Positions 6,041-48,501 of a stretch of 61,814 nt of DNA are shown here, in pieces. The first letter of the stretch is position 1. Each line of letters opens with the position of its first letter. Origin of the DNA: an uncultured Candidatus Saccharibacteria bacterium (GTDB lineage: Bacteria; Patescibacteriota; Minisyncoccia; UBA6257; 2-01-FULL-56-20); the NCBI GenBank assembly GCA_964387675.1, contig CAYLWL010000004.1, forward strand, positions 1 to 61,814, written 5' to 3'. The position numbers and the translations under genes are program-made. The notes under the pieces were generated by a model. That model saw nothing but the letters and a program-made list of their open reading frames with translations, was not told where the DNA came from and did not search any database.

Positions 6041-6090
6041 AAGATCGTTTCCGTTATAACATAATATTATGTTATAACGGAAACGATCTT
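6041..6090. repeat. Palindrome family P2, copy 1: perfect 50-bp palindrome
   Basis: AAGATCGTTTCCGTTATAACATAAT|ATTATGTTATAACGGAAACGATCTT with no mismatch and no loop; 36-bp core repeated at 48466. Confidence 0.95.
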
Positions 6091-28553: not shown

Positions 28554-31821
<3,268 letters not shown>

Positions 31822-33114: not shown

Positions 33115-33606
33115 TCACCATCGCAGGTGGTACGCCGCGGCCGCGCTGTTCTTGCCGACCGCGAATCCAACCTGACGATTCGCCTCCCTGCTTCCCCGCC
33201 GCCACTCCACGATACCGAAGCCAGCCAGAGTTCCTCCGCCAACGGCAAGCCCGTTAGCGATCAGGCCTTTCGTCCGATCGGCGCTGGAGCACTCTTGCCG
33301 CTCCAGACAACCTGCCGATTCAGTTGCGCCAACGACAGCCCCGCCGACGCCGATTGCGAGGCCCCAGAAGACCATCTTCTTGCCTCTCGCCTTCCTGGCG
33401 AGCGCCTTCTCGCGCGCCGACGCCCTATCCTGCGCCGACGTCGCTTGCGCCGTTGCGGACGCAAGCGCTTCCGACGGAACAACGAGCGACAACAGCGGCT
33501 GCGCCGTTGCGGTCGCCGCAGGCGCACTCCCATCATCCGCCGCGCTCACCGTGCCCGCACAGAGCAACGCGGCGAGCATAGACCCGACGAGAATCTTCAT
33601 TCTCAT
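33115..33606 (-). CDS. Hypothetical exported/membrane protein (GC-rich)
   Basis: ATG 33606 or 33600 after a purine-rich RBS; signal peptide; two Gly-rich hydrophobic helices. Confidence 0.65.
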   Translation of the reverse strand: MRMKILVGSMLAALLCAGTVSAADDGSAPAATATAQPLLSLVVPSEALASATAQATSAQDRASAREKALARKARGKKMVFWGLAIGVGGAVVGATESAGCLERQECSSADRTKGLIANGLAVGGGTLAGFGIVEWRRGSREANRQVGFAVGKNSAAAAYHLRW

Positions 33607-33679
33607 TTCCCTTCTCCTTTCAGTAAGAGGCCCGGACGCGAATGCGTCCGGGCACGTGAGAGTAGCGGTCGGCGATCCG

Positions 33680-34135
33680 CTACTTTGTAAGCGCGAACGT
33701 GCCGGTGACACGGTCGCGCTCGGGGTTCGGGAAAACCCCGACGAACGACCCGACGAGATTCGCGCCGTCGAACGCCGCCTTTCCCGACACGGAAAGACCG
33801 CTCGCGGAGTTCGTAAGGGAAAACGTCATGGTCGTGCCACGAATGGTCCCGACCAGCGTTCCCGACTGGAACTCTCCGTAGTCGTTGACCGACGACCACA
33901 CCCCGCGAACGTCGCCGCTGTCGTTGACGAGTGTCAGCGTCATCGTTCCGGAGCCGAACGGATCGGCGTCCTTGCCGATGGTCTCATTCACGGAACCCTT
34001 CCAGGTTCCGCCGAAGCTCGCCGACGCCTGCGCCGATACCGCCGAACCCTCCTGCCGCGCCGCCGCGGTCACGGAGTTGCCAGGGTTCACGACCGTGGCG
34101 AGCGCCACGATCGCGACGAGAAATGCACTCTTCAT
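33680..34135 (-). CDS. Hypothetical secreted beta-rich protein (GC-rich)
   Basis: ATG 34135 after AAGGAGG; signal peptide; GTWKG..GTMTLTL..G.W..G.L.G pattern. Confidence 0.7.
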   Translation of the reverse strand: MKSAFLVAIVALATVVNPGNSVTAAARQEGSAVSAQASASFGGTWKGSVNETIGKDADPFGSGTMTLTLVNDSGDVRGVWSSVNDYGEFQSGTLVGTIRGTTMTFSLTNSASGLSVSGKAAFDGANLVGSFVGVFPNPERDRVTGTFALTK

Positions 34136-34185
34136 GATATCCTCCTTGTCGAAGACGGGTTGCGTCCCATCTTCGTGCTGATTAC

Positions 34186-34215
34186 ATTGTAGCACGAAAT
34201 GGATGAAAAAGTCAA
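34186..34215 (-). promoter_or_regulatory. Internal sigma70 promoter for the two-gene insert
   Basis: TTGACT-18nt-TACAAT with extended TG; TTCGTGCT/AGCACGAA inverted repeat (34172-34198) overlaps the -10. Confidence 0.6.
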
Positions 34216-34243
34216 TAGGTCGTTTTGGCTTGAAAAACAAGGA

Positions 34244-34789
34244 TTAACCGTCGAGCGTCCGCGCGCTCACGGTCGTTTCTATGCGCAGAACGGTCGCGGA
34301 GGCGCCCCGCTCTTTCGAAGAAACGCCTAAAGATACGGTAATTCTCGGGGGCCAGCCGTCACCGCTTTGGTTGCCTCGCAAAAGAAAGCTCATGTCTTTG
34401 ACTACGACGTTCCCGCCCGTAATTTGCTGGAATGTCCCCGCTACGCCCCGCTCGATGGAGACATCGCTCAACCGATACGCTATCGTTTCGCCCGCGGCGT
34501 TCGTGAATATAAACTCGTTTGAGCCGGAACAAAGAGGATTGCCGTTCGCGTCGTGGCAAAAGTTGTAACCGGTTCTTATTTCTCTTGCCATCTGTTCCAA
34601 CGCCAAACTAATGCCGTTCTCGGCCGCGATCAAGCCGGCGATCTGCCGTTGGGCCCCCAATGACTGGATAAAACCGCCGACGGCAATACTCACAATCGCG
34701 AGAAAAAGCCCGACAGCGACGATGAGCTCGACGAGGGTGAACCCTTTACGAGTATCTAGTATCTGGTATCTGGTATCTAGGAACTTCAT
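34244..34789 (-). CDS. Minor type IV pilin (PilW-like)
   Basis: KG|FTLVELIVAVGLF N-methylation motif. Confidence 0.88.
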   Translation of the reverse strand: MKFLDTRYQILDTRKGFTLVELIVAVGLFLAIVSIAVGGFIQSLGAQRQIAGLIAAENGISLALEQMAREIRTGYNFCHDANGNPLCSGSNEFIFTNAAGETIAYRLSDVSIERGVAGTFQQITGGNVVVKDMSFLLRGNQSGDGWPPRITVSLGVSSKERGASATVLRIETTVSARTLDG

Positions 34790-34802
34790 ATATTAAGTAT
34801 CC
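34743..34802. repeat. 60-bp direct repeat, copy A (pilin leader and upstream region)
   Basis: Identical to 35303-35362; a second 34-bp block 34808-34841 is identical to 35399-35432. Confidence 0.92.
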
Positions 34803-34839
34803 AGTATCTAGATTCTAGTTTCTAGATACTAAATTCTCA

Positions 34840-35349
34840 TTACGGTCTAAAGTTCAAAAAGTGGTCTTCCAGGTTCACGCTCGACTTGGCAAGCCCGCTC
34901 GTCCAAGAAACAACGGAGTTCACCGCGATTTCGTCGGAATCAACAAGCGTGATCCTAACCCTCCTTTGAAATGGCGTCGGAGCGCCGCTCTCTTCATAAC
35001 CATAGAGGTTGGTTATGGGGTTGAAATACAAACTTCTGCCGGCATACGCGGAAAGGGCGATGCTTGACCAGTCAACTTCAAAGTCCCCGGTCGAAAAACC
35101 GCTCGACCACGAAGCCCCGGCAATCGCGTTGTGATCCAGTATGTTTTTTACGACCTCAATGCCTTCTGCCGCAAGATACGTGGCAAGAACATTGTCGGCA
35201 ATAATGCGGTTCGCGCGCAGTGAACTCGCAAGGAGAGTAAAAATTCCCAGAAACCCGGCAATAAGCACGCTGATCGCGACGATTGCCTCGACAATGGTCT
35301 GGCCTTTACGAGTATCTAGTATCTGGTATCTGGTATCTAGGAACTTCAT
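34840..35349 (-). CDS. Minor type IV pilin (PilV-like)
   Basis: KG|QTIVEAIVAISVL; A..LA.EGIE.V motif. Confidence 0.85.
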   Translation of the reverse strand: MKFLDTRYQILDTRKGQTIVEAIVAISVLIAGFLGIFTLLASSLRANRIIADNVLATYLAAEGIEVVKNILDHNAIAGASWSSGFSTGDFEVDWSSIALSAYAGRSLYFNPITNLYGYEESGAPTPFQRRVRITLVDSDEIAVNSVVSWTSGLAKSSVNLEDHFLNFRP

Positions 35350-35362
35350 ATATTAAGTATCC
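35303..35362. repeat. 60-bp direct repeat, copy B
   Basis: Identical to 34743-34802. Confidence 0.92.
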
Positions 35363-35431
35363 GATATCTAGAATCTGGCAACCAATAAACGGCGAATACT
35401 AGATTCTAGTTTCTAGATACTAAATTCTCAT

Positions 35432-36010
35432 TCAAAAGTCCACTTGGCCCGAAGAGTTGATGGTTATCGTTCTTTTGGCCTGGCCATCGTTCGTTTCGAG
35501 ATACACCTTGACCGGCGAACCGGTGAGCGACGCTCCCCCGTCGACGCTCAAGAGGGTCTTGGGATTCGGCGGCACGAACAACAGCACGCTCAAGCTATCC
35601 GCGTCCGCGTTCCTCAAAACCAAACCGGGGGCAACCGTATATGAGGAAATGGTCTTCCGGAAACCGGAGGGAATAGCGGCGAGAGAGGCGCAGTTCGGAG
35701 GATTCGGTTCTTCGTAGGTATACAGCGAGTATGTTTTTTGTGAATAATCGATTTCCATCCCGAAACCGCAGGTGTTGGGATTTCCGTCTTTCAACGCGCC
35801 GAGCGCGGAGGACTTCGCCCGAAAAATCACGTTGGCCATTTTTTGGGTTTCGACATACAAAGAAACCTGCCGCTCGCCGGTTTTGCTGTACGTTATCGCA
35901 AGCGCCGAAAGAAGCGCGGTAATGGATATGGCGACTAAAATTTCTATGACCGTAAAACCCTTGCGGGAACAAAGAAACTTCGTATGAAAATCCTGTCTTC
36001 CTGTTGCCAC
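35432..36010 (-). CDS. Minor type IV pilin (FimT/GspH-like)
   Basis: KG|FTVIEILVAISIT; C-terminal I.INSSGQV; start uncertain. Confidence 0.83.
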   Translation of the reverse strand: MATGRQDFHTKFLCSRKGFTVIEILVAISITALLSALAITYSKTGERQVSLYVETQKMANVIFRAKSSALGALKDGNPNTCGFGMEIDYSQKTYSLYTYEEPNPPNCASLAAIPSGFRKTISSYTVAPGLVLRNADADSLSVLLFVPPNPKTLLSVDGGASLTGSPVKVYLETNDGQAKRTITINSSGQVDF

Positions 36011-36036
36011 ATTCTCTATTCTACTACATTTACGTT

Positions 36037-36885
36037 CTATAATCCGAACAATCCGAAATATGCCCTCATCAGCTGGTGCCCGAAGAAAAATACGATAACC
36101 GATGACCCCGCGAGAAACGGGCCGAAAGGAAGATGGCTCTTGAGTGTTTTTTCTTTCGAAAATATTTTATAGATTCCGAAAAACGCGCCGATCACAAATG
36201 CCAACCCGACGACGAAGATCGTATCCGGCCAGCCGAAGATCAAGCCCAAAGGAACGGCCAACTTCAAATCCCCCGCCCCCATACCCCTGCCACGAGTTAT
36301 AAAAATCAGCGCCAGAAAAAAGAGGCCGGCGAGCAATACTCCTAAGGCGTGATTCAGCCAGACATTATCGCGGAACCCGAACAGGGGCGCGTAGGGTTCG
36401 AAAAAGGATTCGTACGTCAGTCCGAACGCCGGTCCGCTTACAAAAATCAAGAGCGCTCCCAAAACAAAAAGAGCGATATTCAATTCGTCGGGAATGATCG
36501 AGAGCCGGAGATCAATCAAGGCAATAAGAAGAAGAACGATAAAAATCAGAATCCAAACCGTAGAGAGAATAGAGAATAGAGAATAGAGAATAAAGGGGGT
36601 GTAGACGCGAAACGGAACGAAAACGAACGTTAGGCCGCTTAAGATTTCGACGATCGGATATTGCATATTTAACGCTCCCCGGCAACTCCGGCAACGCCCG
36701 AGCTGGAGCATAAAACTCACAATCGGTATGAGTTCGAACCACCGGAGAGTTTTCCGGCACCGAGGACAATGCGATCTGCCCAAAAGAGAGGAGCCGAACA
36801 CAAATCGTTCGGGATGGTAACGCAAGGAGACTACGTTCAAGAAACTTCCCATCGAAGCGCCGAAGACGAAAAGCAGAAAAGACAT
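36037..36885 (-). CDS. pilD: Prepilin peptidase
   Basis: GSFLNVV..R, RSHCPRC, GRCRSC, MGAGDLKL, LPFGPFL. Confidence 0.95.
   Translation of the reverse strand: MSFLLFVFGASMGSFLNVVSLRYHPERFVFGSSLLGRSHCPRCRKTLRWFELIPIVSFMLQLGRCRSCRGALNMQYPIVEILSGLTFVFVPFRVYTPFILYSLFSILSTVWILIFIVLLLIALIDLRLSIIPDELNIALFVLGALLIFVSGPAFGLTYESFFEPYAPLFGFRDNVWLNHALGVLLAGLFFLALIFITRGRGMGAGDLKLAVPLGLIFGWPDTIFVVGLAFVIGAFFGIYKIFSKEKTLKSHLPFGPFLAGSSVIVFFFGHQLMRAYFGLFGL
36564..36591. repeat. Perfect (AGAGAAT)4 heptamer tract inside pilD
   Basis: Four identical 7-nt units; read as ILYSLFSILS on the minus strand. Confidence 0.9.
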
Positions 36886-36892
36886 TTTTAGT

Positions 36893-37038
36893 TGAATAAA
36901 GAATTAAGAATTAAGAATAAGGAATGATGGACGGGGAATGAGGAATAAAGAATAGAGAATAACGTAACGGCAATTTATTCTTAATTCGTTATTCATTATT
37001 CTATAACCTTTATTCTTTATTCATTATTCGTTATTCTA
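36893..37038. repeat. Large mirrored heptamer-period tract (AGAATAA arm / TTATTCT arm)
   Basis: About 70-nt purine arm and about 65-nt complementary arm between pilA and pilD. Confidence 0.8.
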
Positions 37039-37108
37039 GTTTTGATTTTAACCAAAAAACCGCCCCGATGTAAATCAAAGCGGCTTTCTGAATCGGGGCA
37101 ATAAGTCC

Positions 37109-37609
37109 CTACAGTTGCGCGCAATAGACCGGATCGTTGCATTCCACGCCGTTCACCGTGCCGTCCACATCTTGCGCCAACCCGGAATTGCCGGCGTCTT
37201 CAAGCCGCGCGCCAAGAACATAGCTCGCGCCGCCAGCCGTGGCGCCGTAAAAGTAATGCGAACCGGCCGTGGGATCATCGGGAACGTTCGATATCCCCAA
37301 GTTACTGCCGACCAAAGAACTGGCAAGATTTTCCCAGGTCGAGATCGCGCTAAACGAACCGCAGGGACTCGACGCTTGCGCCGTACCCGGGTAATAACCG
37401 CACTTGTTAAAGTAAAGCTCAAGCCCGTTCTGCACCTGCCGCAAATCGCTGATACGCCTCGAGTCCCTCCCCAAACGCCTCGTGGGACCCAAGCCGACCA
37501 AAACCACCGAAGAAAGAATCGCCACAATCGCGACCACGATGAGCATTTCGATCAACGTAAAGCCCTTGCGGGAACGAAGCGTGGAAAATCGTGAATAAAA
37601 AAATTTCAT
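37109..37609 (-). CDS. Major type IV pilin candidate (PilA/GspG-like)
   Basis: KG|FTLIEMLIVVAIVAILSSVVL, RD.RRISDL..VQ.GLELY..YP, C-terminal Cys pair. Confidence 0.88.
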   Translation of the reverse strand: MKFFYSRFSTLRSRKGFTLIEMLIVVAIVAILSSVVLVGLGPTRRLGRDSRRISDLRQVQNGLELYFNKCGYYPGTAQASSPCGSFSAISTWENLASSLVGSNLGISNVPDDPTAGSHYFYGATAGGASYVLGARLEDAGNSGLAQDVDGTVNGVECNDPVYCAQL

Positions 37610-37656
37610 GTGTATGTTTGTTAAAAGTATTACTTCAACAGTATACCATATCGCGG

Positions 37657-38880
37657 CTAGCCGCCGCTACCCCCGATGGTGGAGGTGAGATTATAGAGCG
37701 GCACGAGAATCGAGGCAAAAAGAAGCGCGACCATGATGCCGATCAATATCATCAAAACCGGCTGGATCAGATCCACGAGGTTGCTGATCAACGTATCCGA
37801 TTCGTGGCTGTAAAAATTGGCGATGCGAACGAAAATCTGCTCCACCTTGCCCGTCGTTTCTCCCACCGCGACCATCTGTGACACGAGCGGAGGAAAATAT
37901 TCCGGGTACTGGGCAATACTTTGGCTCAACAGCTCGCCTTGGCGAACCTTCTCCGCCACCTCGTGCATGATATCCCGATAAAGAACATTCCCCACCATAT
38001 GGCCGATAATTTCCAGGGATTGGGCAATCGGTATGCCGCCGTGGATAAGGAGGGCTGTGGCATTCGAGAACCTGGTAATCACGATGGGCAAATACACTTT
38101 GTTTACTATCGGCAATCTGATCTTGGCGTCATCGAGGAGAGCCCTGCCTTCGGGAGTGTGAAGATAATCCAGGAGCATCAAGAATAATGCCACGACGACC
38201 AAAAGAAGCGCGGGCCACCACTTACCCAAAAAAGCGCCCGTATGCAAAAGGATGCTGGTGTACAGCGGCAACTCCACGCCCGACTGCGCGAACACCGGCC
38301 CGATTTGAGGAAACACGAACGCTATCATAATGAACCCGACGACCGCGAAGAGTCCCAAGACCAAGCCGGGGTAAATAAGAGCGGAAGAGACCTTACTCGC
38401 GAGCAAGCCCTCTTTCTCGGCATAGTCGGCCAGAAACCCGGCGGTCTCATTCAGATTGCCGGTGATTTCCGCCGCGCGCACCATCTCGATATAAAATTGC
38501 GGGAAGATGTTTTCTTGCCTCTCCATTGCCTGCGAGAGAGACAAACCGGCGTCGATATCTTCGCTTATCCGAAGAACCGCCTCTTTGAGCGTAGGTTGCT
38601 TGGTTTGTTCGTATAACGTTTTCAAAGCATTATTGAGCGGCAAATGGGCCTCAAGCAGAGTCGCGAGCTGTCTCGTGAAAATGATCAAATCCTTCCGCCT
38701 CACTCGGCCGAAGTAACTTGCGATGGTGTCGGAAAATCCTGGTTTTTCCGCGGACTCCAAGCTCAAGATAAACAGATCGTGGCCTCCCAAAATGCTTAAC
38801 GCCGAGTCGCGGTTGCCGGCATCGACGAAACCCATCTGTAATTCTCCTTCTTTGGTTTTTGCTTTGTATTTAAACTTCAT
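37657..38880 (-). CDS. pilC: Type IV pilus platform protein PilC (GspF family)
   Basis: Two GspF domains, F.RQLATLL, VAVGETTG; start MKFKYKA at 38880. Confidence 0.93.
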   Translation of the reverse strand: MKFKYKAKTKEGELQMGFVDAGNRDSALSILGGHDLFILSLESAEKPGFSDTIASYFGRVRRKDLIIFTRQLATLLEAHLPLNNALKTLYEQTKQPTLKEAVLRISEDIDAGLSLSQAMERQENIFPQFYIEMVRAAEITGNLNETAGFLADYAEKEGLLASKVSSALIYPGLVLGLFAVVGFIMIAFVFPQIGPVFAQSGVELPLYTSILLHTGAFLGKWWPALLLVVVALFLMLLDYLHTPEGRALLDDAKIRLPIVNKVYLPIVITRFSNATALLIHGGIPIAQSLEIIGHMVGNVLYRDIMHEVAEKVRQGELLSQSIAQYPEYFPPLVSQMVAVGETTGKVEQIFVRIANFYSHESDTLISNLVDLIQPVLMILIGIMVALLFASILVPLYNLTSTIGGSGG

Positions 38881-48465: not shown

Positions 48466-48501
48466 TTTCCGTTATAACATAATATTATGTTATAACGGAA
48501 A
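48466..48501. repeat. Palindrome family P2, copy 2 (perfect 36 bp)
   Basis: TTTCCGTTATAACATAAT|ATTATGTTATAACGGAAA, identical to 6048-6083. Confidence 0.95.

Follow-up and report, generated by a model that had tools for sequence, protein, structure and literature searches.

Why do two neighbouring minor-pilin genes, whose products resemble each other only at the N-terminus, begin with exactly the same DNA? The question is raised by a type IV minor-pilin operon in a 61,814-nt stretch (hereafter the window) of contig CAYLWL010000004.1, from an uncultured bacterium deposited as Candidatus Saccharibacteria (GenBank assembly GCA_964387675.1). The window is contig C4 of a 780-kb genome in 15 contigs, with about 50% G+C. 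The genes run on the minus strand in the order major pilin, PilD (the prepilin peptidase), pilin3, pilin2 and pilin1, and the identical DNA leads into the last two. A first-pass annotation of the sequence had attributed this identity to recent copying of the leader, and had suggested that the repeats might delete, amplify, swap or frameshift the pilins. Our analysis favours the former idea and speaks against the latter: the shared leaders are probably the product of recent local copying of a tolerated heptamer repeat element, and not a pilin-switching device.

Two copies of one hairpin element

The DNA at 34743-34802 is identical to that at 35303-35362 over 60 of 60 nt, and 34808-34841 to 35399-35432 over 34 of 34 nt, by string comparison and by a repeat search of the window; the lengths originally claimed are thus exact. 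The 60-nt block comprises 13 nt 5' of the ATG and the 47 nt coding for MKFLDTRYQILDTRKG, as far as the cleavage-site Gly of the prepilin. The 34-nt block opens at the upstream gene's stop codon. The borders are abrupt, with 100% identity inside the blocks and 52-56% directly outside them. Between the two blocks, the alignment shows 31 additional nt in one copy (35368-35398) and two mismatches. No other exact repeat with heptamer periodicity in the 780-kb genome is as long as the pilin block, whose identity is therefore far beyond chance.

Together the blocks make up two copies of a single hairpin element built of CTAGAWW heptamers, the TAG family of units. Copy A (99 nt, 34743-34841, minus strand, delimited by alignment) extends from the stop codon of pilin2 to the cleavage-site Gly codon of pilin1, and copy B (130 nt, 35303-35432, minus strand, also by alignment) from the stop codon of pilin3 to the cleavage-site Gly codon of pilin2. 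The copies occupy successive junctions of the operon, pilin3 to pilin2 and pilin2 to pilin1, as direct repeats 560 bp apart that flank pilin2. On the sense strand each junction consists almost entirely of 7-nt units in one register (TTTAGTAT CTAGAAA CTAGAAT CTAGATA CTGGATA CTTAATA TATGAAG TTC CTAGATA CCAGATA CCAGATA CTAGATA CTCGTAA AGG), and the opening units are complementary to the closing ones.

The element has a non-coding 5' arm, an AU-rich middle that holds the ATG, and a 3' arm that is translated as LDTRYQILDT. This pyrimidine-richer 3' arm is the leader array (CTAGATA CCAGATA CCAGATA CTAGATA, sense), located at 34751-34780 on the minus strand in copy A (period 7, 4.3 copies in Tandem Repeats Finder) and identical at 35311-35340 in copy B (Tandem Repeats Finder and string comparison). 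The common start MKFLDTRYQILDTRKG and its heptamer-tract leader, as first described, are borne out by the open reading frame (ORF) translations and by sequence comparison. The array is imperfect, with 91% matches across its 4.3 units and a longest perfect run of fewer than three units. The 5' arm (TAGTATC TAGAAAC TAGAATC TAG, sense; 34807-34837 in copy A, 35399-35428 in copy B, minus strand) pairs with the leader array, according to an inverted repeat search, Tandem Repeats Finder and the predicted fold. The RNA or single-stranded DNA is predicted to fold with -30.1 kcal/mol in copy A (z -3.65) and -41.8 kcal/mol in copy B (z -4.5). In alignment and fold, the 31-nt segment specific to copy B (35368-35398, minus strand) forms the loop and the arm CAGATTCTAG of an inner hairpin (arm, 21-nt loop, arm) and has TCTAG direct repeats at its flanks. 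It stands where cargo-bearing cassettes of the same repeat class carry a gene for a four-helix bundle. From its sequence, copy A looks like a deletion derivative of B that would have lost the 31 nt bounded by these TCTAG repeats.

The ATG codons of pilin1 (34787-34789) and pilin2 (35347-35349), both on the minus strand, lie inside the elements. For both copies, the predicted fold leaves the AUG and the 8-10 AU-rich nt in front of it unpaired, in a loop between strong stems. An in-frame TAA is found 6 nt 5' of the ATG, with no other start codon between this TAA and the cleavage site; the start codon is therefore supplied by the element. A pure CTAGATA array carries TAG in every frame, and in the leader frame a stop is expected solely at unit 3. 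There the array reads CCAGATA where the family unit is CTAGATA, so that the codon is CAG instead of the stop TAG. The unit-3 stop is also removed, by CAG or TAT, in two other pilin leaders (C2:28138 and C9:16737), and the in-frame TAG has been eliminated in three separate leader arrays of the genome.

Neither a target-site duplication nor a fixed terminus could be recognised at A or B, where the ends are a stop codon and a Gly codon, and no transposase link was found for the arrays, although transposases were not searched for. With a permissive threshold, Rfam gave only two chance-level matches over 33500-38000 (a microRNA model on an AT-rich hairpin, and P15). A promoter and terminator scan revealed no terminator in the junctions. 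Both 34-nt blocks contain a weak promoter-like match (ATGAGA-N17-TAGAAT, 9/12), which we do not take as evidence.

The second copy of the blocks could be an artefact, i.e., a mis-join or a collapsed repeat, which the first-pass annotation had named as a result that would undo its claim. The genome was assembled from short reads, with overlaps of 55 nt between contig ends, and an exact repeat of 60 nt is longer than that k. Yet the Logan assemblies of three independent runs match the window without a difference (100% identity over 1101, 2108 and 1190 nt) and reproduce each flank with its block exactly. Their contigs end 30 nt inside the 34-nt block, or begin at the edge of the block, which is how a k=31 graph behaves at a true repeat and makes an artefact very unlikely. 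Moreover, 31 nt are private to copy B, and pilin3, pilin2 and pilin1 follow each other in the same order in three related genomes (L022, L023 and L025). We give this explanation next to no credence. An exact-product look-up of pilin2 returned no record, as expected if unitigs break at both flanking repeats. A gapped-pattern scan of metagenome contigs for copy-number variants of the leader gave 0 matches, and the source population is apparently not represented there.

Leaders and arrays in relatives and in the genome

Of 41 related genomes, none of them from the same genus, 40 contain an orthologue of pilin1, and the alignments begin near residue 10-14; hence, the leader is not conserved. In L022 and L023, each of pilin3, pilin2 and pilin1 is matched by a 1:1 orthologue (62-67% identity) and the gene order is kept, with 67% identity for pilin2 at its position; the three genes also have such counterparts, likewise in order, in L025 (36-43%). 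The three minor pilins are therefore old paralogues, and the identical 5' region of pilin1 and pilin2 is a derived state. The mutual resemblance of these two is confined to residues 1-56. The claim that their mature regions are unrelated holds for the globular parts, which lack similarity, but not for the N-terminal helices (residues 17-56), which are homologous as in all pilins.

A comparison of pilin number and leader identity in relatives, advised by the first-pass annotation, thus gave orthologues that match 1:1 and leaders that differ. The latter are mostly short (MKKG, MKRG, MTSRKG, MERRRG), MKKG being the modal leader among 120 homologues. Around 17% of these homologues have leaders with a periodicity of 7 aa that derive from other units (e.g., LLSTFYFLLSR, LIHNSKFIIQNS, LYPIRYWLY, LLDSGFWILDSR). 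The two minor-pilin leaders are made of CTAYTTT units in L022 and of CTAGATA units in this genome, CTGGATT units stand at both junctions in L025, and L023 has different units at the two junctions. Such a distribution is consistent with homogenisation or copying that has occurred locally and repeatedly, each lineage having fixed a different family.

Period-7 arrays are frequent in this genome, whose homologues are labelled Candidatus Liptonbacteria, of the Parcubacteria within the Candidate Phyla Radiation (CPR). Tandem Repeats Finder identified 292 of them, against 15 in the shuffled genome. They have many different units and a copy number that peaks sharply at around 4 (about 30 nt). The arrays are 46% intergenic, on gene calls made as longest ORFs, whereas intergenic DNA makes up around 9% of the genome, and 28 further arrays lie in the first 90 nt of ORFs. 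Over-representation and intergenic enrichment define them as a class of heptamer tandem arrays. They are also organised as dispersed palindromes, i.e., inverted arms in hairpins with several related copies. Where two arrays are separated by less than 150 nt, they are inverted and of one family in 43.5% of pairs versus a background of 4.4% (p = 1.6e-22), and 20.3% of the pairs 150-1500 nt apart share a unit family versus 8.8% (p = 7e-9), with the proviso that pairs within clusters are not independent. The purine-rich arm comes first in 19 of the 24 hairpins between co-directional genes (p = 0.007); of the remaining five, two are explained by arms of different junctions having been mis-paired.

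The pilin pair has close parallels in ribosomal-protein operons. The junctions before rplF, rplR and rplO have 36-39 nt exactly in common (C3:33588-33625, 34222-34262 and 35217-35255), and 64+26 nt are identical between those before rpsK and rpsD, which lie at a distance of 550 nt (C1:225014-225104 and 225564-225654). As in the pilins, these junction hairpins are near-identical and end at the start codon. A Shine-Dalgarno (SD) core (GGAG/GAGG/AGGA) precedes 14.2% of the ORFs versus 12.3% of random sites, i.e., there is no SD signal, and the usual motifs of the 16S 3' end were not found in the genome by a simple pattern search.

Twelve genes of the genome are prepilin-like, and seven of them have leaders coded by heptamer arrays. 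These 7/12 compare with 21/862 other ORFs that have an array in the first 90 nt (p = 1e-8). Besides pilin1 and pilin2, the leaders are MNKILDSRFQILDSRRG and MKKSDSTYYLLLTTYSSRRG, both before F, and those ending in SIFYFLDSRFSNKG before F and in LLLSIFYFLPSRKRG and LLDSRFYVLDSNCTG before Q. Another prepilin, MTFARNIEISKYRDG followed by FTLTE (C2:25795-26256), has a leader coded by around four copies of an 8-nt repeat, TCGAAATW. The leader array at C2:29207 (TTCTATT TTCTATT TTCTAGA TTCTAGA TTCTCGA) combines two unit families in one tract, which suggests that units drift inside arrays.

The repeat class can also carry genes. All nine genes of the PF05635 four-helix-bundle family (of the type found in intervening sequences (IVS) of 23S rRNA genes) lie between inverted heptamer arrays (C3:9208, C10:15080, C1:102023, C2:26318, C3:67467, C2:50803, C2:35182, C11:15674 and C1:19016), and the right arm of two of these cassettes codes for a pilin leader. 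A PF05635 gene stands directly before a pilin1 orthologue, and is called in frame with it, in other genomes (P0009 and P0022). No PF05635 ORF was found between the arms of A or B; the nine matches in the genome are all elsewhere, and the loop of B has 21 nt. The flanks of the C11 gene resemble, on reading of the sequence and not by a model, the 5' part of a 16S rRNA gene.

Both minor prepilins are encoded on the minus strand. Pilin1 (181 aa, 34244-34789) reads MKFLDTRYQILDTRKG followed by FTLVE. It has the features of a class III signal peptide, with Gly at -1, a hydrophobic helix, Glu at +5, and a match to the N-methylation motif model TIGR02532 (21.6 bits for a cut-off of 16.3, residues 14-37); with PF07963 it scored 20.6, just below the cut-off of 21.2. 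Pilin2 (169 aa, 34840-35349), MKFLDTRYQILDTRKG followed by QTIVE, has Gln at +1 and was not matched by any model above its cut-off. It is weakly PilV-like (TIGR02523, E 0.0085), and its prepilin features are the Gly before QTIVE and the hydrophobic helix; orthologues with Gln at +1 occur at the same operon position.

The remaining genes of the run are on the same strand. Pilin3 (192 aa, 35432-36010), identified as an ORF and by profile searches, has a leader without an array (KFLCSRKG followed by FTVIE). PilD (36037-36885; PF06750, E 1.4e-25, and PF01478, E 1.4e-12) is predicted to remove both array-coded leaders. The major pilin (37109-37609, ORF and profile searches) starts with MKFFYSRFSTLRSRKG followed by FTLIE; its leader is as long as those of pilin1 and pilin2 and similar in peptide pattern, but the DNA periodicity is gone. 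Upstream of the pilin run we recognised PilB-, PilT- and PilC-like ORFs, by reading of the sequence and not by family models. Prepilins, prepilin peptidase and putative assembly genes are found in the same locus.

Other repeats of the window deserve mention. Around ten GAATAAA units face around nine TTTATTC units in a long hairpin (36894-37037) that fills the junction between the major pilin and pilD and is identical in the independent run assembly L035. A perfect (AGAGAAT)4 tract within pilD (36564-36592) codes for part of a membrane segment (ILYSLFSILS); its length is unchanged in L035, which spans it, and contig L036 begins at the edge of the array (36592). The ORF of the NAD-dependent DNA ligase, ligA, holds three heptamer arrays (CCTTGAC, CTGATGT and GGTAGTA, at 29574-29607, 29767-29789 and 30876-30905). 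Finally, a perfect 36-nt palindrome, TTTCCGTTATAACATAATATTATGTTATAACGGAAA, is present at 6048-6083 and 48466-48501 and in at least 10 other loci of the genome, and belongs to a family unrelated to the heptamer arrays.

Origin of the shared leaders

Local copying of a tolerated repeat accounts best for these data. The identity takes in synonymous as well as non-coding positions and has sharp edges on both sides, and the leaders of the orthologues differ, which upholds the idea of a recent copy. This is the trace that gene conversion or local copying would leave: an abrupt tract of identity in old paralogues whose orthologues lack it. In such a scenario, an ancestral short leader would have been replaced or expanded by array DNA, and a junction-filling heptamer hairpin would have come to supply both the ATG and the leader. 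One of the junctions would recently have been copied onto its neighbour, by gene conversion or another local process, and copy A would then have lost 31 nt between the TCTAG repeats. As an outcome, both minor pilins would share their 5' RNA context, namely a hairpin with the AUG exposed in its loop, in a genome without SD signal. The prepilin leader would be a permissive place for repeat DNA, because it is cut off by PilD, much as the ORFs of housekeeping genes accommodate arrays, and copying between neighbouring pilin junctions matches the pattern seen between other neighbouring junctions of the genome. We infer that B, the fuller copy, was the donor and that the change was neutral; neither the shared hairpin context nor the 560-bp direct repeat needs to be an adaptation.

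Two simpler accounts were rejected. Selection on the leader peptide is ruled out as the cause of the identity by the identical synonymous sites and by 47 nt of identical non-coding DNA. The array could also have been born in situ from duplicated ancestral TCT CGN (Ser-Arg) codons, but as the sole origin this fails, since its units match the dispersed CTAGATT/CTAGATA family and not GATTCTC.

Several observations weigh against neutral local copying. The 31-nt indel and the two mismatches between the blocks mean that a single simple conversion tract is not sufficient, and the mechanism and timing of copying are deduced from one consensus sequence. Six to seven of the around 16 loci with TAG-family arrays are beside pilins, though pilins are 1.4% of the genes, and TAGAA-like arms recur at pilin junctions of other genera. 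This enrichment exceeds what is predicted if any permissive site would do, and may reflect targeting or function. The polarity of hairpins relative to transcription hints at selection at the RNA level or specific to a strand. Lastly, the longest-ORF gene calls behind the genome-wide statistics are crude.

Some of these points would be explained if the junction were a shared cis-regulatory module, in which the hairpin with the AUG in its loop acts as a 5' control of the translation, processing or stability of the minor-pilin messages. Its identity would then be kept to hold the production of pilin1 and pilin2 at a fixed ratio, possibly with the promoter-like match as a part. The unpaired AUG of both copies, the weak excess of SD cores over background and the non-random polarity of the hairpins would suit such a role, as would the over-representation of TAG-family elements at the pilin junctions of three separate clusters and of other genera. 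TAACTGA heptamers near the start codons of SD-poor Beggiatoaceae have been proposed to be translational regulators (PMC4679880). But arrays are absent from many of the orthologous junctions of relatives (MKKG, MTSRKG and VMKRG leaders), which makes the element dispensable. The same repeat class is found in frame inside housekeeping genes such as ligA, and TAGAAT-like units yield promoter matches of 9/12 unaided. A regulatory module and a selected fixed proportion are both conceivable, if unlikely. A broader version would have TAGAA/CTAGAWW heptamer hairpins, with or without a PF05635 gene, form an active, transcription-oriented element system of Parcubacteria. Such elements would settle preferentially at prepilin starts, rewrite leaders and 5' RNA structure, spread from junction to junction and possibly act as a start-site signal in SD-less genomes, the identical leaders being a fresh footprint. 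We regard this as distinctly doubtful.

The proposal that the locus is a contingency device, in which heptamer slippage toggles each minor pilin and the 560-bp-spaced repeats delete or amplify pilin2 or swap pilin heads, appears improbable. It does have arguments in its favour: the unit is not a multiple of 3, the sequence shows that gain or loss of one unit brings a stop (TAG or TAA) into frame at once, pilin2 is flanked by direct repeats of 60 and 34 nt, and the CTCTT repeats of Neisseria opa and the 7-bp repeats of Haemophilus influenzae hmw are precedents. Yet the tract has merely 4.3 imperfect units with 91% matches, far from a long near-perfect tract, in a genome where array copy number peaks sharply at 4, and related leaders in other species retain around four units. 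Equally long perfect tracts inside essential genes argue against high slippage rates. The three run assemblies agree in length at the leader array, at the pilD tract and at the hairpin of 36894-37037, although contigs hide minor variants. The same geometry of direct repeats also surrounds ribosomal-protein genes, which cannot be dispensable. The block is one instance of a genome-wide class of 292 arrays, and a head-swap, deletion or frameshift device specific to the pilins finds no support in the form first proposed. Deletion or amplification between the 560-bp-spaced repeats is physically possible and, if such recombination occurs, it would remove one core minor pilin.

If local copying is the right account, a cleaved signal or leader peptide can act as a sink for repeat DNA, and a dispersed repeat can harmlessly give genes of surface structures their start codon and whole N-terminal peptide. 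It also calls for caution in annotation, since CPR pilin leaders such as LDSRFQILDSR, LLSTFYFLLSR and LNSQFSILNSR are repeat-derived and not conserved motifs. In these tiny genomes heptamer arrays seem to be copied between neighbouring junctions, a process that we did not find described in the literature searched.

Relation to known repeat systems

Our literature search found no paper mentioning heptanucleotide repeats together with the CPR, and the titles and abstracts on type IV pili of Patescibacteria linked no repeats to pilin leaders. New here are the exact duplication over two successive pilin junctions, the evidence for homogenisation of neighbouring junctions, the removal of in-frame TAG codons, and the polarity of the hairpins relative to transcription.

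The closest known systems are heptamer repeats. TAACTGA repeats lie between genes of marine Beggiatoaceae, cyanobacteria and Bacteroidetes (MacGregor 2015, PMC4679880), and heptameric simple sequence repeats, including the cyanobacterial short tandemly repeated repetitive (STRR) sequences, have been reviewed and are over-represented in Xanthomonas and Nostoc (PMC4692102). The arrays described here resemble them in having 7-nt units in sets of 2-6 copies, mostly intergenic and ending a few nt from start codons. Both overlap upstream stop codons, carry stops in all frames, are occasionally translated at protein ends, and occur in ribosomal-protein operons in an SD-poor context. Unlike TAACTGA and STRR, our arrays have dozens of unit families, usually in inverted pairs that form hairpins. 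They also differ in that the array gives the start codon and the complete cleaved leader, and in that two neighbouring junctions are identical.

Rickettsia palindromic elements, the repetitive extragenic palindromes (REP) and bacterial interspersed mosaic elements (BIME) of enterobacteria, and the Correia elements of Neisseria are small dispersed palindromes that enter genes or junctions. They share with the present element the dispersed junction hairpins, the tolerance in frame within proteins and the ability to contribute expression signals, but the arms are here 7-nt periodic and very diverse, and no terminal inverted repeats or target-site duplications were seen. The PF05635 cassettes of the 23S rRNA IVS type have inverted heptamer arms as well, whereas A and B lack an ORF and B has only a 21-nt loop.

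Phase variation through repeats in leader regions is known from the CTCTT repeats of Neisseria opa and from the 7-bp repeats upstream of hmw1A and hmw2A in H. influenzae. In those systems as here, the leader-coding part of a surface-structure gene contains a short tandem repeat with a unit length not divisible by 3. Unlike them, the pilin leaders have around four imperfect units, show no length polymorphism in three run assemblies, and belong to a repeat class that is also found in housekeeping genes.

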